Origin: a virus
IMG/VR virus record: IMGVR_UViG_3300022689_000474
Location: 1 to 64,000 of that record
Length of the DNA: 64,000 bases
Strand: one strand, 5' to 3'
The position numbers and the translations under genes are program-made. Positions 2,302 through 55,118 of this stretch are shown here, piece by piece. The notes under the pieces were generated by a model. The model was not told the origin of the DNA, did no database searches, and worked only from the letters and a program-made list of their open reading frames with translations. Every line of letters starts with the position of its first letter. Position 1 is the stretch's first letter.

Positions 2302-2577
2302 TTAGGTATTAATGTTCAGTGAAAAGTAGCATCTATCTTGAAAGTAAAAGTGAGAAAATCTAGAATTAGTTTTTAATTCAGATAAAATAATTTTTATAAC
2401 ATTTATAGAGTTTTCATAAGAATAACCATTATCCATAATCACTTGAAGAATATAAGAGCAATTGATTATATCATTCTCACAAACATAAACAGGATAACTT
2501 AATTTCAAATAATCAATAGCTTCATACCAAACAAATTTTTTTAAATTAAGGTTGATGTTATTGTAAGATAATTGCAT
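2302..2577 (-). CDS. hypothetical protein
   Basis: ORF overlapping the ligase stop. Confidence 0.5.
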   Translation of the reverse strand: MQLSYNNINLNLKKFVWYEAIDYLKLSYPVYVCENDIINCSYILQVIMDNGYSYENSINVIKIILSELKTNSRFSHFYFQDRCYFSLNINT

Positions 2578-4955: not shown

Positions 4956-5618
4956 TTATCTAATCTCTTGTCCTAAGCTTCTTAATCGAATTAGTCTATC
5001 TTTATCTAAATATATTATATTTATATTTTTATGTACCTTTTCTAATCTAAATAAGGATATAGTTAAATCAGATGCTTCATAAAATATAAAACTATCGAGC
5101 AGTTCTAAGTTATGTGTAGAGATACATAATTTATTATTATTTTCTATTGACAACTTATAGAGTATAGAAACTAAATGTTTATAGATAGAATAATGAAATG
5201 AATTTTCTAATTCATCAATAATTATAATTGTATCTTGATGATGTATTAAAGTTAAGAATATATTTATAAATCTAACTAACCCTTTACTCAAAGAATCATG
5301 ATTTATATTTAGATATATCTTACTATTATGAATAGATAGTAAAGAATAAGAATCTGGTAATATTTGTTTTAAAATTCCATTTATATCTTGTATAATTGTT
5401 TCAGATATAGATTTTGAGAGTTTAGTTGATAAAGAATATTTTAAAGGTAATAAGTCATTTAAATACACAGATGAATCTATATTTTCATTTATAAGTTTTA
5501 AAGCGGTGGATTTACCAGTACTATTACATCCTACAAATAAGTTAAATAAACTTAATTTATTAAGAACTAACTGATCAATAAATTCTATATGAGAATTATT
5601 TATAAGATCACCTACCAT
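4956..5618 (-). CDS. compact ABC-type ATPase (AAA_21/AAA_15-like)
   Basis: Walker A GCNSTGKST, signature LSKG, Walker B IIIIDELENSFH, H-loop STHN; a GGAGG SD favours the ATG at 5618 over the TTG at 5630. Confidence 0.85.
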   Translation of the reverse strand: MVGDLINNSHIEFIDQLVLNKLSLFNLFVGCNSTGKSTALKLINENIDSSVYLNDLLPLKYSLSTKLSKSISETIIQDINGILKQILPDSYSLLSIHNSKIYLNINHDSLSKGLVRFINIFLTLIHHQDTIIIIDELENSFHYSIYKHLVSILYKLSIENNNKLCISTHNLELLDSFIFYEASDLTISLFRLEKVHKNINIIYLDKDRLIRLRSLGQEIR

Positions 5619-5740
5619 TAAATCCTCCAAGTATCTATGCTTTCAGTTAATAATAAAGAATTTTAATTTAATATTTAATATAAAGTAATAATCTTTATTA
5701 TTCTTAACATAATACTTTTAGTTTTCTTAAATATATTTTA

Positions 5741-33325: not shown

Positions 33326-33344
33326 TATATATATATATATATAT
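33326..33344. repeat. (TA)9 microsatellite running into a start codon
   Basis: tatatatatatatatatat-g in the 33-nt gap between divergent genes. Confidence 0.9.
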
Positions 33345-34629
33345 GCATTATAACAATTTGGTCAATTTGGCACCTTTTAGTAGTATACTTGAGTATAGAC
33401 CTCAAGAGGATACTTTTTTTTATATAAGTGTGAGTAAGGGTTTAGAGGATTTTTATAATATCTCTTCAAAAGATTTTATTAATAAACCATTATATTTTTC
33501 AGTATCTAAAACTAGAGATATTGATATAGAAAAATGTCATGAAAAGTTTACTAATCTAATAATGACTTCTCTTCGTTATGGTTCTAGTATAGAGATATTA
33601 AAATTATCTACTTTCTTAAAAACTAAAAATAAAGAGAAGTTAGTATGTATTATTTCTTTAAGAATAAAAAATAATGTCTTATTAAACTTAGGATTTCCAA
33701 TATCTGAGTCTTTATTTTTAAAAAGTTCTACTAGGATTGATTTATTGAAAGATACTTTATCATCTATTCTAGATAATATAGATAGCAATATTATTATAAT
33801 AGATCAATCATTAAATATATTGTATGTAAACAGATATCTTAAAAATGATTATATGGATCATTCTTTCAAAGAGATAGTAGATGGTAATATATTCTCTGAT
33901 ATAAATAGATATATAGAAGATACAGTATCTATATATGACAAACCAAATATCTTTTGTAAAGAATACAATATAGATAATCTATCTTATAAGGTAAAAGTTA
34001 ATCCTATTTTGGAAGAAAGAGAATTAGTAAATATATTTATGATCATTATAGAAGACATTACAGAATATCAGAAATTAGTATTAAAAAGTAAAATATTACA
34101 AAAAGAGTTAGATATACAAAAAGATAAGATTGATATTATATTAAGAGGATATAAATCATCTAAAGAAGAGAGTATTAATGATAATCCCAATTTAGATTTA
34201 GTAAGAAGAATAACTACAGCTACAATAAAAGGTAAGGTGAAAAGTATAACTCCTATGGATCATCAACTTATTGGTATATTAAAAGATATAGAAGATATGA
34301 AGAAGGATCATGAAAGATTAATGAATAATATGTTAAATTCAGATGACAAGATATCTTCAAAAGTTTCAGAACTAGAATTATTTATAAATAAGACAGACCA
34401 TAATATTAAATCTATTGAGAAAGTTTTAAATAAATTGGAAAAAGAGATAGTATCTAGTGAAGACTTAACATTATTAAATGTATTATTAATGTCTCCTAAG
34501 AATCAACTGATAATTTTATTTATAATAATAATAATATCGGCGGTTTTATTAGAAGATATAGTTATAGAAAGAGTAAAAAATTATATATTAAATCCATCTT
34601 CTGTTATAGAAGAAATTCTAGAGGAATAG
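33343..34629 (+). CDS. PAS-domain protein with coiled coil and C-terminal transmembrane helix
   Basis: SILDNIDSNIIIIDQSLNILYVN...IIEDITEY is a typical PAS/PAC pattern; possible second PAS at the N-terminus; LIILFIIIIISAVLL TM segment. Confidence 0.7.
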   Translation: MHYNNLVNLAPFSSILEYRPQEDTFFYISVSKGLEDFYNISSKDFINKPLYFSVSKTRDIDIEKCHEKFTNLIMTSLRYGSSIEILKLSTFLKTKNKEKLVCIISLRIKNNVLLNLGFPISESLFLKSSTRIDLLKDTLSSILDNIDSNIIIIDQSLNILYVNRYLKNDYMDHSFKEIVDGNIFSDINRYIEDTVSIYDKPNIFCKEYNIDNLSYKVKVNPILEERELVNIFMIIIEDITEYQKLVLKSKILQKELDIQKDKIDIILRGYKSSKEESINDNPNLDLVRRITTATIKGKVKSITPMDHQLIGILKDIEDMKKDHERLMNNMLNSDDKISSKVSELELFINKTDHNIKSIEKVLNKLEKEIVSSEDLTLLNVLLMSPKNQLIILFIIIIISAVLLEDIVIERVKNYILNPSSVIEEILEE

Positions 34630-34969
34630 AAATTTCTTCTGTCTTATTTATAAAATCTTTCATTTTTTTATCTAATTTTAATTCCTTAGATAAAGAGTAT
34701 TTTACTCTTTTATTACTATTATGATTGGTTTTTAAAGATGGGTATTTAACTTTTAAGTAATTATCTAAAAGAATATATAATCCTTTTAATAATACTTCTT
34801 TCTCTGAGCATTGAAATTCTTCTGCTAATTTATCAATTACGAGTCTTTCTTTCTGTTGTAAACTAAGAATTATTTTTTCTTTATCTTTCTTTATTCTATA
34901 TTTATATATATTATCAATATAACTCTTATCATTATAAAATTTACTAAATTTTCTTATTTGTCTTTTCAT
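34604..34969 (-). CDS. putative ribbon-helix-helix DNA-binding protein
   Basis: IILSLQQKERLVIDKLAEEFQCSEKEVLLKGL has a CopG-like pattern. Confidence 0.5.
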   Translation of the reverse strand: MKRQIRKFSKFYNDKSYIDNIYKYRIKKDKEKIILSLQQKERLVIDKLAEEFQCSEKEVLLKGLYILLDNYLKVKYPSLKTNHNSNKRVKYSLSKELKLDKKMKDFINKTEEISIPLEFLL

Positions 34970-36126
34970 ATAATATTACTCTTAGATAAATAATTTATCA
35001 TATCCATATGATTATCATTTAATACTTTATAATTTATATTTCGTAATTCTAATTGGAATTTATAAACATTTCCATTTTTATCTTTTATCTCTTTCTTTCC
35101 TAATTCACTATTAGGTTTAATATAAACTCTTATAGAAGGTTCTTGACCTCTTTGTATTATTTGTTCTTTACCTTTTATGAGTTCCATCAAAGATATCCTT
35201 ATAATACCTAAATCTTCTATTTTCTTTTTGTTTCTAGGTTTCTTCTTAGTATATTCTTCCTTTCTTTTATCATTATCTTTATAAGAAGCATCGGAATATG
35301 GGATAATTCTTATCACTAAATCTCCTGAGATGAAAAAGCCTTTATCTAGAGGGTTTAATTGAACTTCATCTCCTTTTCCTGGTAAAGTGATAAAGAAATC
35401 TTCCGATATATTAGTAGGCACTCTAACTCTTACATAAGTATTTATATTAATATATCCTTTACCAACACATTTACTACATATACTTGGAGAATCTATTACT
35501 CCTTGTCCTCCACAATATTTACAATTAACTATGACATGATTTGTAGGCGTTCTATCAATACCTGAACCTCCACATTTATCACACGTTTTACTTTCTTTAC
35601 CAGTACCAGAACATGAGGGACAGATGGTTCTCTTGATATAATATATCTGTTTATTAATAAATTGAGTATTTCTACCTTTATTTATATCTTCTTTAGTAAG
35701 TCTATAGTCTATATATTTATTAGGACCTTTTGCCTGATATTGAAAATCAAATGTGGTATTAAAATTATTATTCCTTCTACTATTAGTATATATCTCTTCC
35801 CAAAGAGTTTGACCAGTAGAAACGTCATATCCATGATTAGAGTTATAAGAGGTTTTATAACTTTTCTTCTTATTAGTAGTTTTGTAATAAGGATTATTTT
35901 TAGTATATTGATTAGATGAAGATGTTTGAGATTGAGTATATATCCCCTTATCTCTACATTCAATAATAAAGTTATAAGCTTCATTAATCATCGTGAATTT
36001 TTCTTTACCTTGTGGATTAATATCAGGATGATAAGTTTTAGCTAGTTTTCTATAAACTTTTTTTATTTCTTCAGTAGAAGTATTTGGATCTACTTTTAAT
36101 CTATTATAAGATTCTTCTAAATTCAT
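34966..36126 (-). CDS. dnaJ: DnaJ-type co-chaperone
   Basis: J domain with HPD; four CxxCxGxG repeats; GKGD..GDLVI C-terminal domain. Confidence 0.92.
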   Translation of the reverse strand: MNLEESYNRLKVDPNTSTEEIKKVYRKLAKTYHPDINPQGKEKFTMINEAYNFIIECRDKGIYTQSQTSSSNQYTKNNPYYKTTNKKKSYKTSYNSNHGYDVSTGQTLWEEIYTNSRRNNNFNTTFDFQYQAKGPNKYIDYRLTKEDINKGRNTQFINKQIYYIKRTICPSCSGTGKESKTCDKCGGSGIDRTPTNHVIVNCKYCGGQGVIDSPSICSKCVGKGYININTYVRVRVPTNISEDFFITLPGKGDEVQLNPLDKGFFISGDLVIRIIPYSDASYKDNDKRKEEYTKKKPRNKKKIEDLGIIRISLMELIKGKEQIIQRGQEPSIRVYIKPNSELGKKEIKDKNGNVYKFQLELRNINYKVLNDNHMDMINYLSKSNII

Positions 36127-36161: not shown

Positions 36162-37652
36162 TCAGTCTTGATATGTAAAAGTATTTCGACTTCTCTTCTT
36201 ACTGATATACAAAGCTTTATCTGCATTTTCTATAGTCTTAGAGCAACCAGCACTTAGAGTTATAAAATTACTTATAGTAGATGTAGGGTGTACTATTTTC
36301 TTATCAGCTATTTTAGAACTTATTCTTTCGTATATAGAATTTAATATTTTAATATGATCTTTTTCTTTAACCTTTGGATCAATATTTATCACTATACAGA
36401 ATTCTTCTCCACCAACTCTAGCTGCAGCATCTTTCTTTTTAATAGTATTCTTTAAAGTCTTAGCTACTTCTATTATAATCTCATCTCCTCTTGGATGTCC
36501 ATAAGTATCATTTATAGCTTTAAACCAATCTATATCCAGCATCATATAATATATAATATCTTTACTAAAATAACTTAATTTCTTTATATACAATTCTAGA
36601 CCTCTTTTATTCATAATACCAGTCAAGGGGTCTGACATATATAATTTCTTAATTTTAATATATTTAAAAGAAAAATCACTTAATCTCTTAATAATATAAA
36701 ATAGTATTAAACCTGTAGAAGATAATAATATATTAAAATAGAAAGATATTATTACTGTAATACTAATCGATAAAAGTATAACTAAGAATGAATATTTAAA
36801 TATATTCTTAATAAGTAATGTACCTAAAGAAAATAATACAATTGTCGATGTATTACCCACTAATAAGTAATAGTTATTTCTTCTAGATAGTATTTCTATT
36901 GCATGTAATATAGTAGCGGGATATATACTATCATTTAATATCATAGGATTCTTTATATGTGTTGCCAATCCTGTTGCATCATATCCTATAATAACAACTT
37001 TATTATTTGTATCTCTCTCTATTTTATTACCTGATAATAGATAATCTAAATCATAGGTATTTATATTGGAAGGACTTTCGGGCCAAAGTAATATTATTTT
37101 TTTATACCTTTCATCTGTAAAGGCACCTAAATATGGAGATGCTTCTTCCAATATATTATTAGATGATATACTTTCTAAAGTAAGTAAAGCACCTCCAAGA
37201 GATATAGTAGAAAATACTCTTCTATAAAGGGGATTTTCAGTACTAATATTACTAAAACCTACAGCGCTGTAAGGAATAGAGGGGTCAGGATAAATTACAT
37301 AACCATTAGACCCAAGGACCATACTCATTATTATTCCTGATTGGTTCTCTATAGAAAATAGATCTAAAGGATCATCTTTTTTTTCACCAGAAAACAAGAC
37401 ATCAAAAATAAAATATTTAGCATCTATATTATTAATTGCTCGTGATAAAGTTTGTCTAGAAATAGGAAGTTCTTCTAGATTTTCAATATCTGAATCGGAT
37501 ATCAATACTAATGATAAAGAGTAAGTATCATAATCCTTAAACTTATTAAATATTAAATTTATAATATTTATTTCTATAGGATTGATCCAAAAACATAGAA
37601 AGAAAACAGTAATAAATGTTCCTATACTTTCTAGAATTTTACTCCTTACCAT
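36162..37652 (-). CDS. membrane diguanylate cyclase, CHASE2-TM-GGDEF
   Basis: N-terminal TM; LVLISD, FDVLFS, VGFSN, KVVIIG, PATILHA (CHASE2-like); three TM segments; DPLTG, DIDWFKAINDTYGH.RGD, RVGGEEF (36399-36413), ADKALY.SK. Confidence 0.9.
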   Translation of the reverse strand: MVRSKILESIGTFITVFFLCFWINPIEINIINLIFNKFKDYDTYSLSLVLISDSDIENLEELPISRQTLSRAINNIDAKYFIFDVLFSGEKKDDPLDLFSIENQSGIIMSMVLGSNGYVIYPDPSIPYSAVGFSNISTENPLYRRVFSTISLGGALLTLESISSNNILEEASPYLGAFTDERYKKIILLWPESPSNINTYDLDYLLSGNKIERDTNNKVVIIGYDATGLATHIKNPMILNDSIYPATILHAIEILSRRNNYYLLVGNTSTIVLFSLGTLLIKNIFKYSFLVILLSISITVIISFYFNILLSSTGLILFYIIKRLSDFSFKYIKIKKLYMSDPLTGIMNKRGLELYIKKLSYFSKDIIYYMMLDIDWFKAINDTYGHPRGDEIIIEVAKTLKNTIKKKDAAARVGGEEFCIVINIDPKVKEKDHIKILNSIYERISSKIADKKIVHPTSTISNFITLSAGCSKTIENADKALYISKKRSRNTFTYQD

Positions 37653-37661
37653 TTTGTTTAT

Positions 37662-38150
37662 TTATAAAGGACAAGAAAGGCTTAAAGTATTTGATTCACC
37701 TTTATATATAATATTACTAGGAGAGGATAAATCTAAGATTATACTTTCAAAATTTAACATTCCATTCTTACTTATTTGTCTTCCTATTATAGTTAAGTTC
37801 TCATCGACATTATATTCTCCAAGAGGTTCAGTAATATTTGAATCTTCTAAGGTATTAATAGAAGCAGATCCGATGATAATATTATCATCTTTCAGTACAC
37901 CTTTAAAACAAAAGATATATGATTCATCAGTATCACTATAATATATACCTGTTACTAACTTTCCATCTATAATAATCTCTATTTCAGTATTACCTTTTGT
38001 AATTATATATTTACCATTACCTCTAAAACTTAAATTTTTAAGAATCTCTTCTGAGTTATCATATAATATTAAAGAATGAGATGTATCAATATTTCCTATT
38101 ATAGATATAAATAAAGTACAGAAGAATAAACTATATTTTAATATTCTCAT
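37662..38150 (-). CDS. secreted/periplasmic hypothetical protein
   Basis: Signal-peptide-like N-terminus; 9-nt gaps to both neighbours. Confidence 0.65.
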   Translation of the reverse strand: MRILKYSLFFCTLFISIIGNIDTSHSLILYDNSEEILKNLSFRGNGKYIITKGNTEIEIIIDGKLVTGIYYSDTDESYIFCFKGVLKDDNIIIGSASINTLEDSNITEPLGEYNVDENLTIIGRQISKNGMLNFESIILDLSSPSNIIYKGESNTLSLSCPL

Positions 38151-38159
38151 AAGATTTAT

Positions 38160-38999
38160 TTAATTGATTTGAATAATATTATCAAAAGTTTCTGTATATC
38201 TATTATCTATTGATTTTAAAAAAGTATCATTAAGAGTATTGTTAGTTAGAACTATATCAAAGGTACCGTCTACAGAATCTCCAAATGTAAAAGAACCATT
38301 AGATCTTTTTATATAAAAGCCTCTTTTTAAGTATCCTTTTATTCTGATGTAAATATTATCACCTATAAAGATATATTTTATACTATATAGTCTTAAAGCC
38401 GCATCATAATTATCTATAGTAAAAGTATTAGATAACCTATAATCATCTTTATTTATTAAAGAACCTTCTCCTTGTTGAAGACGGTTGATAAATCTACCAT
38501 CAATAGATGAATTTATAACTTCACCTTCTGTAACAAGTATCATAGAATTACCTTCATCATCAACTAATAATTCAAATGCAGTACCCCTAACAGAAGTTAT
38601 ACTAGAGGGTGTTCTAAGATTAATTTCTTCATTAACCTTAACTCTTACTTGACCTAATTCTATATAGAGATTTCCAATATACTGCGGGTCAGTACTTCTT
38701 TCTATTTTAACTATAGAATTTTCTCTAACTAAAATATCATATTTACTATTATTTAAACTATCTATATATATATTAACAGAGCTATTTTCTAAACTTCTTA
38801 TCTCATTACCATACGAATCTATTTTAGTATTTGTACTAATCAAAGAATTATTAAGATAGACCCTACCAGATATATTATTAAGAAATAAGTATTCTTTAAA
38901 ATTTATAGCTTTTGCTGGTTCTATAAAAGAACCAAACAATAGAAAAATAGAGAATAATATTCTATATAGAAGTTTTATATTACAAATATTTTTTATCAT
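38160..38999 (-). CDS. FecR-domain exported protein
   Basis: Signal peptide (..PAKA); ENS.V.I, GQVRV, LRTPSSITSVRGTAF, VTEGEV FecR motifs. Confidence 0.85.
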   Translation of the reverse strand: MIKNICNIKLLYRILFSIFLLFGSFIEPAKAINFKEYLFLNNISGRVYLNNSLISTNTKIDSYGNEIRSLENSSVNIYIDSLNNSKYDILVRENSIVKIERSTDPQYIGNLYIELGQVRVKVNEEINLRTPSSITSVRGTAFELLVDDEGNSMILVTEGEVINSSIDGRFINRLQQGEGSLINKDDYRLSNTFTIDNYDAALRLYSIKYIFIGDNIYIRIKGYLKRGFYIKRSNGSFTFGDSVDGTFDIVLTNNTLNDTFLKSIDNRYTETFDNIIQIN

Positions 39000-39057
39000 A
39001 AATATTTTTCTATCATAATAATAATGGATTAAAGTAAATTAAAGTAATTGAATACAT

Positions 39058-39555
39058 ATGACTAATTCAGCGAATATCGACTCTATTAGAGTAACTTATC
39101 CCCCTTTCAATTTACCTTCAGGAAGGAAAGTACAATTCAAGGTACTATCTTACAAAGAACGTAGATCTTTAGTCCAAAGTTTTAAGAATGATTCTGGATG
39201 TCTTTTGGAGGAATGGTTTGCCGCTTATTGTTTAGTAAAAGTAGATGATACTCCTGTAGCCAAAGATTGGGAAATAAATTCTAATTGGCCAGAAAGGATG
39301 GCAGGCTGGACTAGTAAAGATGTTATGTTTTATTGTAGAGTATTTGCTGATACAGAAATGTTATCAGAACAAGGAGATCAAGAGGCAAGAGAAGTGGCAA
39401 AAAAACTACTTGGGGAGGAGAGCAAAATGGAGGAGAAATCAGCTCAAGAATTGGAGGAGGTCCCATCACAGATATCAGATCTAATTACCTCTTCCCCTCC
39501 CGGATCTACTCAGAACAAAAGGAGAAATCTCAAAGTAAATACAACTGGAGCATAG
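39058..39555 (+). CDS. putative tail assembly chaperone (short form)
   Basis: LPSGRKV.FK N-terminus, acidic tail, internal slippery site. Confidence 0.55.
   Translation: MTNSANIDSIRVTYPPFNLPSGRKVQFKVLSYKERRSLVQSFKNDSGCLLEEWFAAYCLVKVDDTPVAKDWEINSNWPERMAGWTSKDVMFYCRVFADTEMLSEQGDQEAREVAKKLLGEESKMEEKSAQELEEVPSQISDLITSSPPGSTQNKRRNLKVNTTGA
39399..39497 (+). promoter_or_regulatory. predicted programmed -1 ribosomal frameshift signal
   Basis: In-frame A_AAA_AAA (39399-39405); the -1 frame is open 39351-40088; GGGGAGGAG (39412-39420) can pair with CTCTTCCCC (39489-39497). Confidence 0.7.
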
Positions 39556-41575: not shown

Positions 41576-42433
41576 ATGAACCATAAAAATATACCCCCGG
41601 ATGGGGTACATGCTCCATATTCATATATATATGAAAGTTCTATACAAAGGAACTCATCAACAGGTTTTATTGCAGAAGATATAGGTAAGTTAAGTTATCA
41701 ATTAGATAATGGAGAGATATATGTATTAATAGATACAAGACCAACATGGATAAAGATTTTAAGTGAAGGAGATAGAACTTTACCAACTGGTCCGGCTGGA
41801 GGTCATCTTACTGGAACATTTCCAAATCCGTTAGTACATCATGATTCTCATAATCATACTCCTGGGATTTCAATACCAGCGTATCCAGAAAGTTTAACTC
41901 CATCTGGTTTTGCTGGAGGAGATTTAACAGGATCTTACCCAAATCCTTTATTAAAGTTAAGTGGTGTTATAGCAGGAACTTATACAGCACCATCTATTAC
42001 AGTAAATGATAAAGGTTTAATAACAAGTGTTGTAGGAAGTGATAATGTAGCTTTAAAAAGTGGAGCTAATTTTACTGGTGATATTCAAGTACCAAGTATA
42101 ACTATTAATGAAGGGATAAATCTAGATGGCGATTTCAAATCTAATATAATATGGAGGACTACAGGGGGAAGTTGGACTCCTAGAGCAGAAAGAGGAATGA
42201 ATCAAATGCATACATTGACCTCCAACGGAACATTAATGCCAATAAATGGTGCATCAAGTGGTCATATATTTAATTTAATAATAAAACAGGATTCCGTTGG
42301 AGGAAGAGTATTAAATTATGGGTCAGGGTACACAATAAATGGAAGTATAAAATCAACTGCTTATTCTTATTCCTGGATACAAGTTTTAGTAGTTGATCCT
42401 AGTACATTTCTAGGAAATATCATCCAATTCTAA
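41576..42433 (+). CDS. virion fibre-like protein
   Basis: Duplicated AGG(H/D)LTG(T/S)(F/Y)PNP, GTY..ITVNDKGLIT, LIIKQDSVGGR fibre-type motifs. Confidence 0.65.
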   Translation: MNHKNIPPDGVHAPYSYIYESSIQRNSSTGFIAEDIGKLSYQLDNGEIYVLIDTRPTWIKILSEGDRTLPTGPAGGHLTGTFPNPLVHHDSHNHTPGISIPAYPESLTPSGFAGGDLTGSYPNPLLKLSGVIAGTYTAPSITVNDKGLITSVVGSDNVALKSGANFTGDIQVPSITINEGINLDGDFKSNIIWRTTGGSWTPRAERGMNQMHTLTSNGTLMPINGASSGHIFNLIIKQDSVGGRVLNYGSGYTINGSIKSTAYSYSWIQVLVVDPSTFLGNIIQF

Positions 42434-45933: not shown

Positions 45934-47484
45934 ATGCCATCATTAAGTCACAATACAGAATTTTTGATGCGACATGCTAGAACTCTAGGTACTATTAGAA
46001 CTTATGTTCCTGGGGGAGTGGCAATCGCACCTGATGCAGTTATTCTTCATGATACTGCTTCTTTAGATATTGCTATAGGTGGTGTCTACGATACTGCCCG
46101 GTTAGATCCTGCTAATCGAGCTGCATGGGAAGCTCAATTAGCTGCTTATGTGCCTCCTGCTACAGCTCATATTATTTCATTTTTAGGAGGAGTAATGGAG
46201 TTTGGTGCTAGAGAATATACTCTGGATTCTGGTCCCATGATAAATGCAGGAGATACTTTTCATTCTCAAGCTATTGATTTAGAAGAAATCTGGGATCTCC
46301 TTTCTACTGGTAGTTATGTACTTGCTGCTGTTCCGGATTATGGAGAACCTAAGTTACCCGCAGAAGCAACTGCATTGGGATTAGATTATTATATTACTAG
46401 AGATGGTAATGGTGAATTTACACTTCAATATGCTGAAGATCCTTTTGTAGCTAATGAAGTTGCTAAAGCTGGTGGTTACTCTAGACTACAATCTTTAATG
46501 CTTAATGGTACTGCGACTCCTATCCAAAGACAAGCATTATATAGAATAGCTAACTCTAGAGTTATGATGGATATATGTATTAAAGGAGTTAGATATATAT
46601 TACAGAAAGTAGCTGATGCTCCTCTTTGTTGTAATGGAGGTGTTAATTACTCCTTAGATACTATTAGGTTCATGAGTAATACCTCTATGGAAGTACCTGG
46701 TGCTCCCTTTACTACAACTTTACAAGATGGTACTAATGCTTTTGGTTTGACAGCTGACTTTGGAGGTCTCATAGATGGTGTTTATCCTATAGCTACTTTC
46801 TTTGCTGGTGCCCCTGTTTCTCCTAATGTTACCTTAATACCGGGTGAACCTGTTGCTACAGTTGCTAATGCTAATATCTCTTATATAAGAGGTGTGGGTC
46901 CTGATTTTGGTCCTCCTGATGTCGCTGAAGGTGATCCTAGTAATGGTCCTGGTAGTGAATTGGGATATCTTAAAGGAATTACTTTCTATGAAACCCAAAG
47001 GGATGCAGAGTTAAGAATTAATGGTAGAACATTGGTTGAACCTCAATCTTATGAAGAGATTGAAGCATTTATGGCTTACTTGATGCAATCTCCAGGAGAT
47101 GATCCTTGTAATGTTTGTATGGGTCTTGGTTGGGAAACAGTAGCATTTGCTACGGCAAGTTTCTTTGATCTTTCTAATGCTTGTTCTGCACCCCAATCAG
47201 CTCAAGGTATTCATCCTCTAGATTTAGGTTTCTTTACTGCTAATAATGTTACTTCTTTTGGTCCGGATATTGAATGGTTAGGTAGAGTTAATCCTATCTA
47301 TTCTCAAGGTAGTAATATTCCTATATATGCTCCTTCTGTTGGTGGATCTGCCTTACATATGCATGCTAATCCAGTTCCTTTAATAAGATTTGATATCTTA
47401 GTTGATCCAGCAGCAGTAGCTCCTGTTCCTCATGTAACAATATTACCTGAGAGTGTAACGAGAAGCTATAGAGTTCTTCCGTAA
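45934..47484 (+). CDS. probable abundant virion/head protein
   Basis: Follows the capsid gene; Ala/Gly/Pro-rich; ends at a strong hairpin. Confidence 0.55.
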   Translation: MPSLSHNTEFLMRHARTLGTIRTYVPGGVAIAPDAVILHDTASLDIAIGGVYDTARLDPANRAAWEAQLAAYVPPATAHIISFLGGVMEFGAREYTLDSGPMINAGDTFHSQAIDLEEIWDLLSTGSYVLAAVPDYGEPKLPAEATALGLDYYITRDGNGEFTLQYAEDPFVANEVAKAGGYSRLQSLMLNGTATPIQRQALYRIANSRVMMDICIKGVRYILQKVADAPLCCNGGVNYSLDTIRFMSNTSMEVPGAPFTTTLQDGTNAFGLTADFGGLIDGVYPIATFFAGAPVSPNVTLIPGEPVATVANANISYIRGVGPDFGPPDVAEGDPSNGPGSELGYLKGITFYETQRDAELRINGRTLVEPQSYEEIEAFMAYLMQSPGDDPCNVCMGLGWETVAFATASFFDLSNACSAPQSAQGIHPLDLGFFTANNVTSFGPDIEWLGRVNPIYSQGSNIPIYAPSVGGSALHMHANPVPLIRFDILVDPAAVAPVPHVTILPESVTRSYRVLP

Positions 47485-47526
47485 TAAGAATTGTTGGATT
47501 TGGATTTATGAATTAATTGTATTGAG

Positions 47527-47561
47527 TTTTATTATCCGACTGAATAAGTCGGATAATAAAA
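47527..47561. terminator. 15-bp hairpin terminator
   Basis: TTTTATTATCCGACT-gaata-AGTCGGATAATAAAA. Confidence 0.8.
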
Positions 47562-47596
47562 AAGTAATAGTAAAATAAATAAATTGAGTAATTTAT

Positions 47597-48319
47597 ATGG
47601 CTTCTAGTAAAATAATTGTAAATATACAAACTCCTTTCAGACATGGGAATAGATTACTCCCTAGAGGACAACAAATGGTCTATTCTATATCTAATGATAA
47701 AGATATGAAGGATTTATTCAATCTTATGAATAATCCTATGTCTAAAAATGGAGTATATCTGGGTGAAGCTGATAGAAAGTTATATGATAAATATGTGAGG
47801 GAAAAATATGATAGGTTTGGAAATTCTGCTTTTAAAGAAAGTGTTGAAATGAATACATCTTATTTACAACCTCCTGAAGAACCAGTAGAGTCCCCCTATT
47901 TAAATGCTGTCTCTTTATCTAAAAAAGGAGATCAATACCCTAAGAATGATTCACAACAAAATGTAGAAAAGAGTATTACTACACTATTAGCTGAATCTGA
48001 AACTAGAGATAAATCAGAATACGTTAAAGAAGATTTAGTTGAACAAGAACATATTGAAACTGTCAGTGTGGAAGATGAAGATAATACAGATAATTCTATA
48101 AATGTAGAAGATCTTAAAAGAGAATTTGAGGAAAGATATGATCATTTAGTTAGTGCTCATTATACTAAGATCCAAGATAGAGCTAAAGAGTTGAATATTG
48201 AATATACAGTTAAAGATGATACTATTCTAGAAATACTTGAAGCTGAATTCTTGGAGAGTGCTGTTAATTTTGGTATAGAAGAGACTTTAGACGAACTTTT
48301 AAAATCAAAGAATAAATAA
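47597..48319 (+). CDS. acidic head-module protein with Rho-N/HeH-like C-terminus
   Basis: IQDRAKELNIEY..KDDTILEIL. Confidence 0.5.
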   Translation: MASSKIIVNIQTPFRHGNRLLPRGQQMVYSISNDKDMKDLFNLMNNPMSKNGVYLGEADRKLYDKYVREKYDRFGNSAFKESVEMNTSYLQPPEEPVESPYLNAVSLSKKGDQYPKNDSQQNVEKSITTLLAESETRDKSEYVKEDLVEQEHIETVSVEDEDNTDNSINVEDLKREFEERYDHLVSAHYTKIQDRAKELNIEYTVKDDTILEILEAEFLESAVNFGIEETLDELLKSKNK

Positions 48320-48337
48320 AATCTATAGTTATCCTTC

Positions 48338-50197
48338 GTGAATAATATGGACTTAATAACTAAGGATACAGAATTATTGGGAATCGTTACAGATGAATCT
48401 TTTATATCATCGGTCAGAAGGGCCTCTATCCTAGGAAGTGATGGAGGTCTATTTTCTGATGATGATATTATTAAAATAGCTTTATATGATGCATATCCTA
48501 GAATCTTAATGAGAATATCTCTTACTAGAGATAAAGATAATAATCCTTTATTTAAAGGAATAGGGGTAAAGAAAACAGATTATAGTTTACAGTTTATAAA
48601 ATCATTAGAGATATTAAAATCTCCACCTTATAGTTTTGGTCTTAAAAGAGTTGCTATTTCTTTAACTGCTAGTTATTTAATAAAAAGTTTACCTCTTAAT
48701 GCTGATCTTAAATTCTTTGACTTGGGAGAAAGTTTAGAGAAAAGTGCTATATCAGATTTGGAACAATTAATTGGTGTATTGATAGATGATCAATCTATTA
48801 TTGATCTTATTAATAACGATTCTTCTTTAGATAATAAGATTTTCTTATCCTCTAAAGTTCCTTATAAAGCTTTATTCTTTTCTTATTCAATAGATCTTGG
48901 TTCTATACCACCTGATAGTTTTGATTTAGTGGAAGAAGATATAGCTCTGTATGAAGGAGTATCTCTTCATACCTCTTTAAATATTCCTCAGAATTACTCT
49001 GGAGTTTGTTATATCAATATGAGTTATACTGGTTCTGATAAGTTTATAAAAGAAGCTTTTATTATTGATCCTCAATGGTCTCTTATTGATATATGTAATC
49101 TACTTACAGAAGTTATTAATGAGTTTAATGTAGATGTAAATTCAAATGTAATTGCATCTCTTAATATTAGTAAAGAACAGGTAAATGAAGTTACTTATTC
49201 TAAAGCAGAATTGTATCCAGACTCCACTACTAATAGAGAGAAAAAGTTATTATTTACTATTTATCCAAGAGTTCATGTTATTGAACTTAGTACCCTTAAT
49301 CTTTCTAGTATTCGTAATAGAGAGGTTATACATGTCGACCTTAGAACTATAAATAATAATTTACTCCCCGAAGTATTAGATTCTACTATATTGAATACAT
49401 TAAGACCTCTTACTTCTAAAGGTATAGATGGTATTTATTTTGGAGTTATAAATAATTATTACGCTTTAACTAAAGAAGGACCTCACTCTCTAATAGTAGA
49501 AGTAGATAAAGGAGATATTATATCTACTCAAGATTCCAGTGAAGTACCTATTAATAATAAAGTTAATAATAAGGATCTTATTATAGATACTTTTTATTTC
49601 AGAATACCAAGTAATTTAACTTTAGTACAAGGTCTTATGGTAGTTAGAGTAAGTACTTCTCCTAATATAACTTCTATTAAAGAATGGATAATAAATATAC
49701 CTTCTGGTACTAACGCAGATGAAATAGCTAAGATCTTTCATATGTCATTCTACGATAAAGAATATATTACAGAAGTATTAGGAAGTTTGGCACATTCTAA
49801 TGCAGTTCAAATGGTATCTTTTATAAAAACTAGGGAGGTTGTAAGGATTATTGTAGATATATTAGAAGTACCTCTAGGAGTAGAAGTAGCTACAGGTAAT
49901 AATATTAATAATATAACTCCTTATAAACCTGGCCATAGATCTATAAATATACCAAGTGTACCCAAAGATAAAGAAGATTTACAGAGTATAGAAGAATCAA
50001 ATTATAATAAACCCAAGAAATTAAATATTGGTAAAAGTAGTCCTCCTTCTATATCTCCTCAACTTCAAGCTGTTAGGAAAAAATTAGAAGAATTAGATAA
50101 ATGTAATTATCCAAATTATGGAAAATGCCTCCCATACCCCTCAATCATCAGGGCCGGAAGATTCGGATGGTGCTGTCCCGAGGATTATACAGAGTAG
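48338..50197 (+). CDS. putative head-tail connector with large C-terminal extension
   Basis: Position; helical N-terminus LKRVAISLTASYL..AISDLEQL is reminiscent of Mu gp36. Confidence 0.45.
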   Translation: MNNMDLITKDTELLGIVTDESFISSVRRASILGSDGGLFSDDDIIKIALYDAYPRILMRISLTRDKDNNPLFKGIGVKKTDYSLQFIKSLEILKSPPYSFGLKRVAISLTASYLIKSLPLNADLKFFDLGESLEKSAISDLEQLIGVLIDDQSIIDLINNDSSLDNKIFLSSKVPYKALFFSYSIDLGSIPPDSFDLVEEDIALYEGVSLHTSLNIPQNYSGVCYINMSYTGSDKFIKEAFIIDPQWSLIDICNLLTEVINEFNVDVNSNVIASLNISKEQVNEVTYSKAELYPDSTTNREKKLLFTIYPRVHVIELSTLNLSSIRNREVIHVDLRTINNNLLPEVLDSTILNTLRPLTSKGIDGIYFGVINNYYALTKEGPHSLIVEVDKGDIISTQDSSEVPINNKVNNKDLIIDTFYFRIPSNLTLVQGLMVVRVSTSPNITSIKEWIINIPSGTNADEIAKIFHMSFYDKEYITEVLGSLAHSNAVQMVSFIKTREVVRIIVDILEVPLGVEVATGNNINNITPYKPGHRSINIPSVPKDKEDLQSIEESNYNKPKKLNIGKSSPPSISPQLQAVRKKLEELDKCNYPNYGKCLPYPSIIRAGRFGWCCPEDYTE

Positions 50198-50945
50198 ATA
50201 TGAACATAGATTATTTGGTCCACCTATCCCATCTATATACTATTTATGTATATATGTGTATAGAAAAATAGTAACTCATCCTTTAATAAGATCTCCTATA
50301 GTTAGAGATCCATTAAGTGGAGAGCCTATATTTATAAAAAGATATAAACTTAAGAATGGTGTTGAATTAAAAGAAGGTTTAGCTTGTTCTATATTTCCTC
50401 ATAGTTCTCCGACTGATTCATTTGCTTTACCTAGTCCAACTGAAACTTCAGTATCCGCTTTATTTAGCCATCAGAACTTAGATCCTAATTTTGATGATGT
50501 AGTTTATCATATTTCTATAAAGTTACATTATGCTACTACTACAGTATTTGTACCCCATCCTAATGAAGAATTGAGAAAAATATCAGAAGTTAGAGGTGTA
50601 GGTCCTTTGAGTAGATATTATGATACTAATAATGAGGTAGAAGTAGATTTAGATCTAAATCCATCATTAGTAATAATAGGAGATTATATGGAATTAGTAA
50701 GGTATGCAATATTAGATAATACTCATACAGTAGATCTTCCTATACCATTTAATAAACTTGAAGTACTCTATTTTAACTTTAAAGACGCTCCTTGGGAAAA
50801 AGGTAGAAATATCTATTTCTCAGAAGGAGAGATATTATTAAGAGTAGATACTAAGATATCTAGAATATGGGATATAAATAAACCAATATTAGAAAGGATC
50901 AAATGTTATATGTTAGAATTACAACACGTTTCTGATTCTGAATGA
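50118..50945 (+). CDS. putative neck/tail terminator protein
   Basis: Position immediately before the sheath gene. Confidence 0.45.
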   Translation: MENASHTPQSSGPEDSDGAVPRIIQSRYEHRLFGPPIPSIYYLCIYVYRKIVTHPLIRSPIVRDPLSGEPIFIKRYKLKNGVELKEGLACSIFPHSSPTDSFALPSPTETSVSALFSHQNLDPNFDDVVYHISIKLHYATTTVFVPHPNEELRKISEVRGVGPLSRYYDTNNEVEVDLDLNPSLVIIGDYMELVRYAILDNTHTVDLPIPFNKLEVLYFNFKDAPWEKGRNIYFSEGEILLRVDTKISRIWDINKPILERIKCYMLELQHVSDSE

Positions 50946-51009
50946 GTTATAACATTAATAAAATATAACTTTGCTGTTTAGTATATAAATATTTTAAAAG
51001 GTAATAATT

Positions 51010-54000
51010 ATGTCAATGCCAATCCCTAGGGTTAAATTTATAGAGGTTAACTCTGGATTTACACCTATAAGAATGTCTGCTAAAAATAGAATTGGTATTA
51101 TCGCTCCTTTCTCTAGAGGTCCCGCTTTTAGATGGAGATATGTTGGAGGTTATACTGATTTTGCTGATACTTGGGGAAGTGATACTTCTATTGGTTCTCT
51201 TGCATTTCAAGCCGCTTGGGATCAAGGTGCTAGAGATTTTGGATTGATAAGAGTTCTTGGTTCTGGTGCTCCTGCTCAAGGAATGATTAGATTTGGAGGT
51301 ATAGCTTCAAAACACAATAATATTCTTTTACATCTAAGGATTATAGGTGATCCTATTAGAAGATCAGATAGAGAAATTAAAGCTAATATTTTTACTAGTG
51401 GGGAATATAGGAGTAGTATTAGTGGTAGGTACTGGTTTAGAGTTGATAATAAATTTCTTGAAGATGGTGTTGAAAAATATACGATTAAATGGATCTTTGT
51501 TCCTTTAGGTGTAGATGGTGTTATAGCATGGCAAGATACTTCTGCACCTGAAATAGATATTCCATTAGATGCCATCCCTGTAGAATTTACTGATAAAGCT
51601 TTACAAGCTACTACTGATGTTTCTGGTATATCTCCTACTCTTTTGAGTGTAATTGGTTCTCAAGAAGTTGTATTTCCTGATTCCTGTTTGGGTTTACCAA
51701 GACCTGGAGAATCTTGTACTCTAGTAGGGACTCCTGGTTATGTTGTAGTTGTTAATGTTGGGGATATGAGATGGTTCTGGCATATTGATGGGGCAGATTC
51801 AGATAATATTAGAATAGATGAAGAAAATTCTGGTTATTATGGAACTCCTCCTATACCTTTAGAAGGATTTCCAGAAGGACTTAATAGTCAATTAGTGACT
51901 GATACAAGAACTGGTTTTACTAATTATCTCAATTTATTATTTACTGAATCTGAATTATCAAATGTAGAAGTATATACACCTACTGAAAGTATAATAGTTC
52001 CAGAAGATCAAACTGGTGTTGTTTTTGGCATAGAAAGAGGATTAACATTACAATTTGAGACTTTAAATACTATAGATCCTATATATCTAGAAGTAGGTGA
52101 TATGTGGTCTATAAGAGTTAATTCTGATACTTGGAGAATACCTATTTCAGAAGGAGCAAGTCCTAATCAAATAGCCACTAGTATGATAGAAGTCTTAGCT
52201 GGTGATGATCCATTAGGTGAAATAATTAGGACTAAAGAAGATGATGGTATTATTTTTAAGTTAATGGAAGAAGAAACAGGAGTACAAGGTAATAAATATA
52301 CTTATTATGTAGATTTAGAAACTCCTGATGGAGAAGTTATAACAGAAGCTAGTTATACGGGAGCGCCTGTTGATCCTGTTACTGGTTCCTATCCTCCTAT
52401 GGAAATATCTTCAGTTCAAGTTCCTATTAACTTTGCACATCATATTCAAGAGGGTGCTAGTGTTAGTAATTTACATGCTGGAGATCCTTTTAGTGTCTAT
52501 GTTGTTTCGGGCTCTGGTTTTACTCTTCCAAATTATGATGAGAATATTACTATTCCTCCAAATACTACTGTAGCTTCTATTGATATCCCGGCTTTCTCGG
52601 CAGCTGGTAGTGGTGCTTTGGCTGTTATAAATCTTTCTAATCCTATTACTGTTATTGGTTCTGGACAATCAGTATTCCATTTTGATAATACTAATGCTGG
52701 TGTTGATCTTGGAGCAGGGGGTTTAGGTATGACAATGAGTAATTATACTTTTTATCAAACTCGTTATATGTCAGGAGGTATAAATGGACCCCGTTCTGCA
52801 TATAGAGATTTTTATTCAATAGATGGATATAAACTATTGACTCTAGTAGCAACTTCAGAAGGACAATGGGGAAATTCTATAAGAGTAACTATATATCCTC
52901 TTACTACAGAAACATTTAACTTAAGAATCGTTGATCTAAATACTGATAGTTATGATCCTCCTATAGCTGAAGAGTTCTACGCTAACCTTAGTTTTAGAGA
53001 TGTAGATGAAAATGGATTCCTTAATCAATTGAATCAATCTAAATTTGTCAGAGGTGTCTTTGTTCCTAAAGCTCTTAATCCTAATGTTAGTCAAGTCTTC
53101 TATCAGAAGAGTATTATGAGATTGGCTCCCCCCGATCCTTTGGAAGTTGATCCTTCTGAACCAGGTCATTTATTAAATTATGGTCCTAAATGTTTAAGAC
53201 AAGTACATTTAGAAGATGGATTTGATGGTCCTCCCTTAACGGATATGGATTATATTAAAGCTATTCGTATATTGAAAAATGCACCTGCTCATATAATATT
53301 GGCTCCAGGTGTATATCAATCTGGTGTTATTAAACAATCACTTATAGCTCAAGCTCATTCTGCTACTGAACTGGAAGGTTTGAGAATAGCTGTCGTTAAC
53401 GCTAAACCATTCTTAGTACCTGAAGCTGCTAATCTTGAAACTATAGGTTATGGCTCTACTAGGGGCGTTATGGTTGCTGGATGGGGAACATATATTGGTA
53501 TTAATAATACTACTAGATTTAGTCTTAGTCCTGATGCTCCCTATTCAGGTAAGTTATCCCGTATTCCTTTCTTCTTAAGCCCTGCTGCTAGGACAGATGC
53601 TGGACCTATTTATGGTATCTCAGAGTTGGATACTCAAAATTATAATGCAATGTCTCAACTTCAGGCTTATACAGATGCTAGATTGGAAGTATTACATCTT
53701 GATCCTAACTTATCTGCATTTTATGTATTAACAGGTCGTACATTAACTTCTAATACTCAATGGGATAAGATATCTTATAGAAGAACTTTTGATATTGTAA
53801 GGGCTGATTTATATGTACTATTACAACAATTTAAGAGTGCTCCTATTAATGCCAGATTATTCTCTCAAATATCTGCTTCTATAGATGCTCATATGACTAC
53901 TATGACTCGTAATGGTTCTTTAAGATCTTTCTCTGGTACTAGTGTTAGATCATTAAATCCTGCTACAGGATTAGTTGAAGTGCATGTAGGTATTGTTCCA

Positions 54001-54075
54001 GTATATGCTGCTGATTATATAGATGTATATCTATATAGAGATGATGGTGGTAATGTTGTTAGACCTACTTCTTAA
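51010..54075 (+). CDS. contractile tail sheath protein
   Basis: P.V...E..SG, IGIIAPFSRGP, F.D.WG, G.WGN.IRV, IILAPG, LTGRTL, ISYRRT.D, V.VGIVPVYAADYI. Confidence 0.92.
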   Translation: MSMPIPRVKFIEVNSGFTPIRMSAKNRIGIIAPFSRGPAFRWRYVGGYTDFADTWGSDTSIGSLAFQAAWDQGARDFGLIRVLGSGAPAQGMIRFGGIASKHNNILLHLRIIGDPIRRSDREIKANIFTSGEYRSSISGRYWFRVDNKFLEDGVEKYTIKWIFVPLGVDGVIAWQDTSAPEIDIPLDAIPVEFTDKALQATTDVSGISPTLLSVIGSQEVVFPDSCLGLPRPGESCTLVGTPGYVVVVNVGDMRWFWHIDGADSDNIRIDEENSGYYGTPPIPLEGFPEGLNSQLVTDTRTGFTNYLNLLFTESELSNVEVYTPTESIIVPEDQTGVVFGIERGLTLQFETLNTIDPIYLEVGDMWSIRVNSDTWRIPISEGASPNQIATSMIEVLAGDDPLGEIIRTKEDDGIIFKLMEEETGVQGNKYTYYVDLETPDGEVITEASYTGAPVDPVTGSYPPMEISSVQVPINFAHHIQEGASVSNLHAGDPFSVYVVSGSGFTLPNYDENITIPPNTTVASIDIPAFSAAGSGALAVINLSNPITVIGSGQSVFHFDNTNAGVDLGAGGLGMTMSNYTFYQTRYMSGGINGPRSAYRDFYSIDGYKLLTLVATSEGQWGNSIRVTIYPLTTETFNLRIVDLNTDSYDPPIAEEFYANLSFRDVDENGFLNQLNQSKFVRGVFVPKALNPNVSQVFYQKSIMRLAPPDPLEVDPSEPGHLLNYGPKCLRQVHLEDGFDGPPLTDMDYIKAIRILKNAPAHIILAPGVYQSGVIKQSLIAQAHSATELEGLRIAVVNAKPFLVPEAANLETIGYGSTRGVMVAGWGTYIGINNTTRFSLSPDAPYSGKLSRIPFFLSPAARTDAGPIYGISELDTQNYNAMSQLQAYTDARLEVLHLDPNLSAFYVLTGRTLTSNTQWDKISYRRTFDIVRADLYVLLQQFKSAPINARLFSQISASIDAHMTTMTRNGSLRSFSGTSVRSLNPATGLVEVHVGIVPVYAADYIDVYLYRDDGGNVVRPTS

Positions 54076-54123
54076 TGCATTATAAAACTTAGTAAACTAA
54101 ATCTTTAATTATTAATAAATATT

Positions 54124-54972
54124 ATGCCTCAAATACCTAGTTATTCTTCTACTCAAAGTGAATTATACTGTGCCCCGGTAGATAATACAGGTCTTGATCC
54201 TATGCAGGGTTTTGACTTCTTTGTTTGGGTTGCAGATGTTTGTACTGGTAAATTGGCTTGGTTTGGAGCCTTCCAAAGTTTAACTCTATCCATAAGAGAT
54301 GCTACTGAAACTTATTTAGAATTAGGACAACGTATCCCTATTCATCTTAATGGTGAAATACAAATAGCCTGGGTTCTAGAACAAGGTTTAGTTGATTATC
54401 AATTTATTTATAGGACCTTTGGTGTTAAATCAATTAGAAGGGATATGTATATTACTAGAGGTCCAAGATTCCAAATCTCTTTTGATGGTAATGCTTATGA
54501 ATTAGATAGGTCCGCAGATGGTTCTGGAAGAGGGATAGTCGCTAATGGTACTGTTGATAGAGCTAATGATAGTGGTATTGGGGGAGATGATTTATATCGA
54601 TGGGGTTCTGATGAATATTTGCACTTGAGTGCAGATTTCTATTCCTCTGATACTAACTTTAGACCTATTAGATCAGGTCGATATGATGTCTTAAGATGTA
54701 AAGTTGATTCTGTTTCTCTTGGTATAATGCCCGGTAGAAGGGTCGCAGCTGTTAGATGGGAAGGAGTTGCAGAAGGTATAGCTTATGTTAATGAGACTGT
54801 TCAACAATTTAAGACTGAAAGAACTACTAATACTAGTGGTAATTTCCTTAATCAACTTGGAGTTGAGAATATTAATATTGGGGATCTGACTGGTGCAGCA
54901 GTTGGAGGTGGTGGTGGTAGGCTTAGTAGTAATGTTGAACAACTTAATCAGACTTTGGCTTCAGGTGGTTAA
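54124..54972 (+). CDS. tail tube protein
   Basis: Follows the sheath; DPMQGFDF, ETYLELGQR..L.GE..I...LEQG. Confidence 0.8.
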   Translation: MPQIPSYSSTQSELYCAPVDNTGLDPMQGFDFFVWVADVCTGKLAWFGAFQSLTLSIRDATETYLELGQRIPIHLNGEIQIAWVLEQGLVDYQFIYRTFGVKSIRRDMYITRGPRFQISFDGNAYELDRSADGSGRGIVANGTVDRANDSGIGGDDLYRWGSDEYLHLSADFYSSDTNFRPIRSGRYDVLRCKVDSVSLGIMPGRRVAAVRWEGVAEGIAYVNETVQQFKTERTTNTSGNFLNQLGVENINIGDLTGAAVGGGGGRLSSNVEQLNQTLASGG

Positions 54973-55003
54973 TAAATATTCTTTAATACTCCTTCATTAA
55001 TTT

Positions 55004-55040
55004 ATATAAAACATGGAGAATATACCTCCATGTTTTATAT
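55004..55040 (+). terminator. 15-bp hairpin terminator after the tube gene
   Basis: ATATAAAACATGGAG-aatatac-CTCCATGTTTTATAT. Confidence 0.8.
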
Positions 55041-55118
55041 TATATTTCTGTATATTAATACTTATAACTATTAGATTATTAGACATAAATATATATATAT
55101 CTAAATATATTGTATTAG

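Follow-up and report, generated by a model that had tools for sequence, protein, structure and literature searches.

A FecR, CHASE2, and GGDEF gene trio in a virus related to cyanophages

Introduction

Genes for FecR-domain proteins are paired with genes for CHASE2 receptors in several bacteria: this pairing has been described in the 'BiofilmReg' operon of Burkholderia, which regulates biofilms (PMC5192318), and in the CHASE2 adenylate cyclase clusters of Campylobacterota (PMC9239204). Cellular cyclases that join CHASE2 to a GGDEF domain are known as well, and the GGDEF part of one of them, Alr1219 from Anabaena, makes cyclic di-GMP (c-di-GMP) in vitro when its sensor is removed (PMC13075795). 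On the viral side, a diguanylate cyclase has been reported from a Mu-like virus of the Cariaco Basin virome (PMC7785012); in the literature that we found, the function of such phage and virome enzymes is not described. Here, we describe three adjacent genes, coding for a FecR-domain protein, an orphan protein, and a CHASE2-GGDEF membrane protein, in IMGVR_UViG_3300022689_000474, a virus record of 152,052 bases with a GC content of 29% and a completeness of 82%. The window analyzed in this work is the first 64,000 nucleotides of this record, and we refer to the three genes as the trio. We compare the trio with the bacterial FecR and CHASE2 pairs, follow it through the phage lineage in which it is found, and weigh what it may do in an infected cell.

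Results

CHASE2-GGDEF cyclase

The trio consists of three open reading frames (ORFs) on the minus strand. An initial annotation, made from the sequence of the window, had described three genes separated by 9-nucleotide (nt) gaps, and the exact ORF coordinates (Table 1) reproduce this layout, with 9 nt in each gap. Domain assignments were judged against the curated Pfam cut-offs (23.8 bits for GGDEF, PF00990; 26.3 bits for CHASE2, PF05226; 24 bits for FecR, PF04773). The cyclase exceeds both thresholds that concern it, with 103.4 bits for GGDEF (E value of 1.4e-29, residues 340-490) and 41.1 bits for CHASE2 (E value of 2e-10, residues 25-251), and its ortholog in a related phage contig, P0004, carries PF05226 in precomputed matches. 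A six-frame search of the 152-kb record returned a single GGDEF domain (106 bits), which is that of the trio cyclase. When the CHASE2 part was compared with cellular CHASE2 proteins by hhalign, it aligned with that of a kinase over 194 columns at an E value of 2e-4 and a probability of only 44%, and with that of a second protein at an E value of 0.19. A simple hydropathy rule places one transmembrane segment at residues ~10-32 and three more at ~263-321, with CHASE2 between them at ~34-262 and GGDEF following at ~335-496. By this rule, the protein is predicted to have the canonical 1+3 topology of CHASE2 receptors, with the GGDEF domain in the cytoplasm.

The catalytic motif reads RVGGEEF in the window cyclase and RFGGDEF in P0004. 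The window cyclase also carries DIDWFKAINDTYGHPRGDE, with the aspartates that bind metal and the Asn/Asp pair that binds guanine in canonical diguanylate cyclases: D373, D375, K378, N381, D382, H386, and D390 are all present, with N381 and D390 forming the guanine-binding pair. At the positions listed, these residues are invariant among four aligned CHASE2-GGDEF proteins, namely the two phage copies and the metagenomic proteins P0008 and P0101. Thus, the Pfam matches, DIDWFKAINDTYGHPRGDE, and the hydropathy profile, the last of these a rule-based prediction of topology, agree with the initial annotation, which had seen a membrane cyclase with intact GGEEF and DIDxFK.IND..GH-type motifs. The intact motifs suggest that the enzyme synthesizes c-di-GMP, and the canonical guanine-specifying residues point to plain c-di-GMP as the product.

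The inhibitory site (I-site), which lies five residues before GGDEF, does not have the RxxD form in the phage proteins: residues 405-408 are KKKD and KKRD in the two phage copies, whereas P0008 and P0101 have RxxD there. Membership in this class of enzymes does not require RxxD, and we rejected KxxD as a special feature because it is common, being present in 27 of the 127 top GGDEF matches. The I-site bears on one alternative role for the enzyme. Work on phage defense pays much attention to cyclic-nucleotide decoys and sponges (PMC12657218), and the GGDEF protein might serve this arms race, its nucleotide misleading or saturating a signaling-based defense of the host and leaving host behavior unchanged. 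The KxxD site might weaken product inhibition, as such a role would favor, but the frequency of KxxD among GGDEF proteins and the residues that specify guanine, and with it plain c-di-GMP, argue in the other direction, and a decoy that acts in the cytoplasm would hardly need a sensor in the periplasm. We regard this explanation as very unlikely.

FecR-domain protein

The first protein of the trio (P0003) begins with a predicted signal peptide that ends with AKA at residue ~31, continues into a FecR beta-domain at ~32-180, and ends in a C-terminal region that is modeled with low confidence. The Pfam score for FecR is 22.6 bits in the window copy, just below the cut-off, and 29.3 bits, above it, in the ortholog P0123. 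The AlphaFold2 (AF2) model has a predicted local distance difference test (pLDDT) score of 81-93 over residues 31-120, and Foldseek matched it to 4m0h, 4m0n, and PupR 6ovk_R with a probability of 1.0 and E values of 2e-4 to 3e-4. These structures come from the periplasmic domains of PupR, an anti-sigma regulator, and of BDI_1681, a putative anti-sigma factor; the model therefore confirms, as a predicted structure, the FecR/PupR periplasmic beta fold in P0003.

On the one hand, the periplasmic beta-domain fold is shared with the FecR/PupR anti-sigma regulators of cell-surface signaling (6ovk_R, 4m0h). On the other hand, P0003 differs from proteins of the FecIRA/Pup type in having no cytoplasmic anti-sigma domain, as its signal peptide leads straight into the FecR domain, and in lacking both an adjacent TonB-dependent transducer and an extracytoplasmic function (ECF) sigma factor, for which the 152-kb record gave no Sigma70_r2 match. 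The signal peptide, together with the absence of an anti-sigma part and of an ECF sigma factor from this record, thus indicates a stand-alone FecR-domain protein that is predicted to be exported.

Orphan protein

The middle gene of the trio encodes a protein (P0002) with a predicted signal peptide and two conserved cysteines, C81 and C160. The three orthologs are 58-65% identical, and conservation starts right after the predicted cleavage site. The AF2 model (pLDDT of 77) is all-beta, with nine strands. Signal peptides were recognized by simple rules (a basic stretch at the N terminus, a hydrophobic core, and a site of the form A/S-x-A/S), and the orphan and FecR proteins each have all three elements. 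Both are therefore predicted to leave the cytoplasm, and the two exported proteins of the initial annotation hold up as predictions.

Searches with the orphan protein against Pfam and PHROG returned nothing even at an E value of 10, and a comparison of its model with the folds in PDB gave nothing significant (Foldseek E values of at least 0.1). Its sole true relative among 1.84 billion representatives is a phage variant, P0129; a fourth variant sits on a 1-kb contig. Several candidates proposed by VIA-align (the LptG jellyroll, small eight-stranded barrels, avidins, and LolA/RseB) were rejected, as the best Z score of 5.6 is below the noise level of the tool. The look-alikes found in the ESM Atlas are unnamed cyanobacterial clusters (score of 0.88, TM of 0.58-0.67), which we treat as a lead only. 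A small gene upstream of one of the cellular FecR genes described below (contig L006) is unrelated to the orphan gene. Within the searches made, the orphan protein appears to have no relatives outside this phage lineage.

Cellular relatives of the trio

A profile search with the FecR proteins identified three cellular homologs (P0126, P0127, and P0128) with 23-28% identity, one of them named Leptolyngbya. The gene for each lies directly upstream of a gene for a CHASE2 receptor: two of the receptors are CHASE2-class III cyclases, and the third is a CHASE2 histidine kinase. The contigs carry cyanobacterial-type neighbors, such as CP12 and phycobilisome-type HEAT repeats. Since the nearest cellular FecR homologs are found directly upstream of CHASE2, we interpret the phage trio as a viral version of a known sensor pair. 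The initial annotation had stated that FecR and CHASE2 genes co-occur in bacteria, and these three contexts and the two published systems (PMC5192318, PMC9239204) bear this out.

The phage set resembles the bacterial pairs, which have a COG4254-type partner and include the three cyanobacterial ones (contigs L004, L006, and L008), in that the FecR gene lies upstream of a gene for a receptor with one transmembrane segment, CHASE2, and three further transmembrane segments, on the same strand. In addition, the alignment of the phage FecR protein with the cyanobacterial-type homologs spans the whole of its length. In contrast to the bacterial pairs, the phage set is carried by a virus, it has a GGDEF output domain where they have a histidine kinase or class III cyclase, and the gene for the orphan exported beta protein is interposed between the FecR and CHASE2 genes. 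It also lacks the LysM domain, response regulator, DUF4136, or TPR partners of the bacterial systems. The relationship is remote: identity between the FecR proteins is in the range given above, and the CHASE2 half, although it matches the Pfam profile, gives only a weak signal in profile comparison (E value of 2e-4).

The cellular CHASE2-GGDEF cyclases (Alr1219, P0008, and P0101) share domain order and length class with the phage cyclase, and P0008 and P0101 align over ~90% of it, at only 25-27% identity. When the sensor half of the cyclase was searched alone, only the phage ortholog was found; scans of JGI metagenomes and GTDB genomes gave matches to the GGDEF domain only, with 25-43% identity and from many phyla. 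Taken over all searches, this domain shares 30-40% identity with enzymes from a wide range of phyla. With GGDEF matches so widely spread and a sensor half that matches only the ortholog, no donor lineage can be named.

The trio in its phage lineage

On one side, the trio is flanked by a structural block with genes for a portal of the Mu type, a capsid protein, and a tail sheath; on the other side lies a giant gene coding for 4,838 amino acids (aa). Among 50,697 phage records, the capsid protein resembles those of cyanophages only: My-WqHQDG, a Microcoleus phage that is the nearest cultured relative (41.6% identity), and Ma-LMM01 and the MaMV phages (~40%). A search of 5.8 billion proteins gave a single full-length relative of the cyclase, P0004, which is 52% identical. 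Its 84-kb contig (L001) has the order giant gene, small genes, DnaJ-like gene, trio, two small genes, portal, and capsid, and within the trio the order FecR, orphan, cyclase is kept. A third assembly, from a different set of runs (L012), is ~99% identical to the window, with the order and place of the trio unchanged. The claim that the module is phage-borne is thus upheld by the virus record itself, by the adjacent portal, capsid, and sheath genes, and by the same synteny in two other assemblies.

Between the window and L001, the capsid is 96% identical and the portal 88%, whereas the three proteins of the trio are 42, 59, and 53% identical and their same-strand neighbors 42-57%. The ratio of nonsynonymous to synonymous substitution rates (dN/dS) in this comparison is 0.52 for FecR, 0.23 for the cyclase, and 0.06 for the portal, values that are rough because dS is saturated. 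All are below 1, as expected if the trio is kept under purifying selection, and these rough estimates together with the identities portray it as an accessory module that evolves fast and yet is maintained. The GC content of the trio is 25.0%, compared with 24.3% in other non-structural blocks and 29.2% in the genome as a whole, and it falls at the 14th percentile of windows of the same size. Both the AT-rich composition noted in the initial annotation, similar to that of the surrounding phage genes, and the long residence in the lineage that was proposed there fit these data: in L001, the trio has diverged far more than the capsid and still occupies the same place, with dN/dS below 1.

These observations bear on the possibility that the trio is cellular DNA misassembled onto phage DNA, or a very recent insert from a host. 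Its domains are typically cellular, and there is a case in point in the phage collection, where the record of MaAM05 has a GGDEF match and does look cellular (see below). Here, however, three independent assemblies from different runs have the trio in identical order and position, 36 kb from the nearest record end and between a giant gene of the Ma-LMM01 type and the portal. Its composition equals that of other phage blocks, the closest cellular protein is ~27% identical over the full length, and the sensor half matches nothing except the phage ortholog. The same synteny in independent assemblies, the matching composition, and the intact motifs rule out misassembly and recent capture; a chimeric host insert, which would have undone the initial annotation, is contradicted, and we give this explanation almost no weight.

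In My-WqHQDG, the giant gene leads almost straight to the portal, and no GGDEF domain was found anywhere in the genome; the records of Ma-LMM01 and MaMV are absent among the GGDEF tblastn matches in the phage collection. The module was therefore gained within this sub-lineage.

Another explanation is that the phage is temperate and the trio serves lysogenic conversion: expressed from the prophage, it would be an additional environmental sensor that leads the lysogen to form biofilms or to aggregate, with no role in lytic infection. IMG/VR tags the record as 'provirus'; furthermore, the protein cluster of the cyclase names a contig of 161 kb, longer than the 152-kb record, so that ~9 kb were trimmed. 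The structural genes are encoded on the other strand from the trio, which belongs to an accessory block that evolves fast, and annotated diguanylate cyclases are present in induced-prophage records of E. coli. Against this, no tyrosine integrase, serine recombinase, or resolvase was found in the 152 kb searched, although a completeness of 82% leaves room for an integrase elsewhere. Genes for replication of the phage type, with the same composition as the rest, are located at both ends of the record (an NAD-dependent ligase at window positions 2558-4540 and PolA and a RecA-like protein near 145-148 kb). The relatives Ma-LMM01 and MaMV are treated as lytic phages. We consider a role confined to lysogeny unlikely.

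Occurrence in other viruses

The GGDEF part of the cyclase matches PHROGs 5594, 14602, and 9661 with E values of 1e-39 to 1e-14, and tblastn found it in other phages, including Bacillus phage G (gp350) and Bacillus phage SP-15, at ~30-35% identity. These viral diguanylate cyclases share the GGDEF domain only: none of their tblastn matches reaches the CHASE2 half. Neither the CHASE2 half nor the FecR protein had a tblastn match in the phage collection, a DNA search of this collection returned nothing, and scans of IMG/VR with the cyclase, orphan, and portal proteins found no relatives. The set of FecR and CHASE2 genes was not found in any phage collection searched.

One family suggests that CHASE2 receptors are not wholly absent from phage and prophage catalogs: phrog_35576 aligns with both the CHASE2 and the cyclase parts of the cellular CHASE2-class III cyclases, and it may be the only CHASE2 receptor cataloged from phages. 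In place of the GGDEF output of the window cyclase, this family has an output of the adenylate/guanylate cyclase type, and neither the window cyclase nor its ortholog matches it. A potential cyanophage precedent, 'Microcystis phage MaAM05', was rejected: in this 274-kb record (MW495066.1), the GGDEF-like gene lies among housekeeping genes (queG, pgi, ferredoxin, sufS, and hemW), and the stretch concerned (positions 46970-55452) has the appearance of cellular DNA. The initial annotation had called a sensor-cyclase module unusual in a phage. The set as a whole is indeed rare, although phage and virome cyclases were already known (G, SP-15, and the Cariaco Basin virus, PMC7785012) and phrog_35576 is similar to CHASE2-cyclases. 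Thus, phage cyclases are known and so is the bacterial FecR and CHASE2 pair, and it is the presence of both together in a virus that appears to be new.

Neighboring genes

The intergenic region that separates the FecR gene from a divergent plus-strand gene is, by its position, the likely promoter region of the minus-strand unit; a promoter scan scored no better than shuffled sequences, and no terminator was found between positions 33000 and 40200. The DnaJ-like gene begins 35 nt beyond the end of the cyclase gene, shares its strand, and holds the position that it has in L001 (57% identity) and L012; it may be co-transcribed with the trio. A plus-strand gene for a 428-aa protein (33343-34629) converges on this block; the protein has a C-terminal hydrophobic segment, is 49.5% identical to its counterpart in L001, and has PAS matches in Pfam that are sub-threshold only (E values of 0.13-1).

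Elsewhere in the window, a 285-aa protein encoded after the portal (41576-42433, plus strand) has a weak bactofilin match below the cut-off (E value of 6e-5), and its ortholog in L001 has a weak match to Phage_phiTE_241_C. The C-terminal part of a 224-aa protein (4956-5630, minus strand) matches AAA_21 and AAA_15, ATPase families of the AbiEii type.

Table 1. Features of the trio region, with coordinates in the window
Feature	Coordinates	Strand	Evidence
Predicted exported stand-alone FecR-domain protein, 279 aa (P0003)	38160..38999	-	Pfam, AF2 fold, cellular homologs upstream of CHASE2 genes
Predicted exported all-beta orphan protein, 162 aa (P0002)	37662..38150	-	Signal-peptide rule, AF2, three orthologs
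Predicted CHASE2-GGDEF membrane diguanylate cyclase, 496 aa (P0001)	36162..37652	-	Pfam, hydropathy, alignment
58-nt divergent intergenic region, FecR gene to plus-strand gene at 39058	39000..39057		Position only
DnaJ-like protein	34966..36126	-	Pfam DnaJ (2e-15), intact HPD motif, four CxxCxGxG zinc-finger repeats

Discussion

We consider it probable, with some reserve, that the trio is a virus-encoded signaling module that passes information from outside the cytoplasmic membrane into the cytoplasm. In the mechanism that we propose, the cyclase would insert into the cytoplasmic membrane of the infected cell, most likely that of a cyanobacterium, with CHASE2 facing the periplasm and GGDEF facing the cytoplasm. 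The FecR and orphan proteins, once exported, would assist sensing in the periplasm by binding a cue or by passing it on to CHASE2, and the signal would lead to dimerization of the GGDEF domains and conversion of two GTP molecules to c-di-GMP. Neither EAL and HD-GYP nor PilZ and ComFB domains were found in the 152-kb record; therefore, the messenger would have to act through receptors of the host. In cyanobacteria, high c-di-GMP suppresses motility driven by type IV pili and promotes aggregation (PMC10124867, PMC5871770). Host receptors would accordingly turn off pilus motility and uptake and turn on aggregation and matrix production, and the surface and behavior of the infected cell would be altered, for example in its pilus-dependent receptors or in its staying within a colony. 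The fast evolution of the two predicted exported proteins fits parts that meet variable partners outside the cell.

Several points weigh against this proposal. The identity of the host is its main weak point: marine picocyanobacteria have no c-di-GMP signaling (PMC10124867), and in such a host the mechanism would fail. CHASE2 domains have no known ligand (PMC5192318). Cyclase activity, expression in the infected cell, and the cyanobacterial host are predictions, and the signal peptides and the topology come from simple rules rather than a dedicated predictor. As the record is 82% complete, its missing part could hold a c-di-GMP receptor or a phosphodiesterase, and the 'provirus' tag means that the trio may be expressed from a lysogen. 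Finally, the selection values suffer at both ends, as the close comparison has too few changes and the distant one is saturated.

The initial annotation went further and suggested that the module senses a periplasmic cue, such as superinfection or the state of the envelope, and reprograms the host surface or the timing of lysis. In this scenario, the periplasmic parts would detect a second infecting phage or envelope damage, and c-di-GMP would set the time of lysis or block superinfection, by analogy with the periplasmic sensing in T4 lysis inhibition. The sensor parts are indeed predicted to face the periplasm, and the two predicted exported proteins evolve much faster than virion proteins, as expected if their partners vary. 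However, no link between the trio and genes for holins or endolysins is apparent, the phage record yielded no c-di-GMP receptor, and the literature that we searched contains no lysis clock controlled by c-di-GMP. Such a cue and output are conceivable, and we found no supporting evidence for them; we hold this scenario to be speculation and quite improbable.

More tentatively, and with clearly less confidence than we place in a signaling module as such, we suggest that the two phage-specific periplasmic proteins, of which one is an orphan in both fold and sequence, capture an outside or envelope cue and gate the viral CHASE2-GGDEF protein. What the phage meets outside the infected cell would then guide its decision on when to flood its host with c-di-GMP, and the trio would be the first recognized virus-encoded transmembrane receptor complex.

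The discovery that some phages listen to signals, among them arbitrium peptides and the quorum-sensing molecules of their hosts, has changed views of how infection decisions are made. To our knowledge, all the phages concerned use cytoplasmic receptors. If our interpretation is correct, the trio would add a new route of phage signaling, in which a membrane receptor encoded by the virus works with periplasmic helpers of its own and answers through a second messenger. It would also suggest that cyanophages influence whether bloom-forming hosts form colonies, move, or sink. The CHASE2 domain is widespread, and its ligand could be easy to find in a compact phage set of three genes whose partner proteins evolve fast. 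Should the two exported proteins indeed gate the receptor, the trio could give the first handle on what CHASE2 domains sense.

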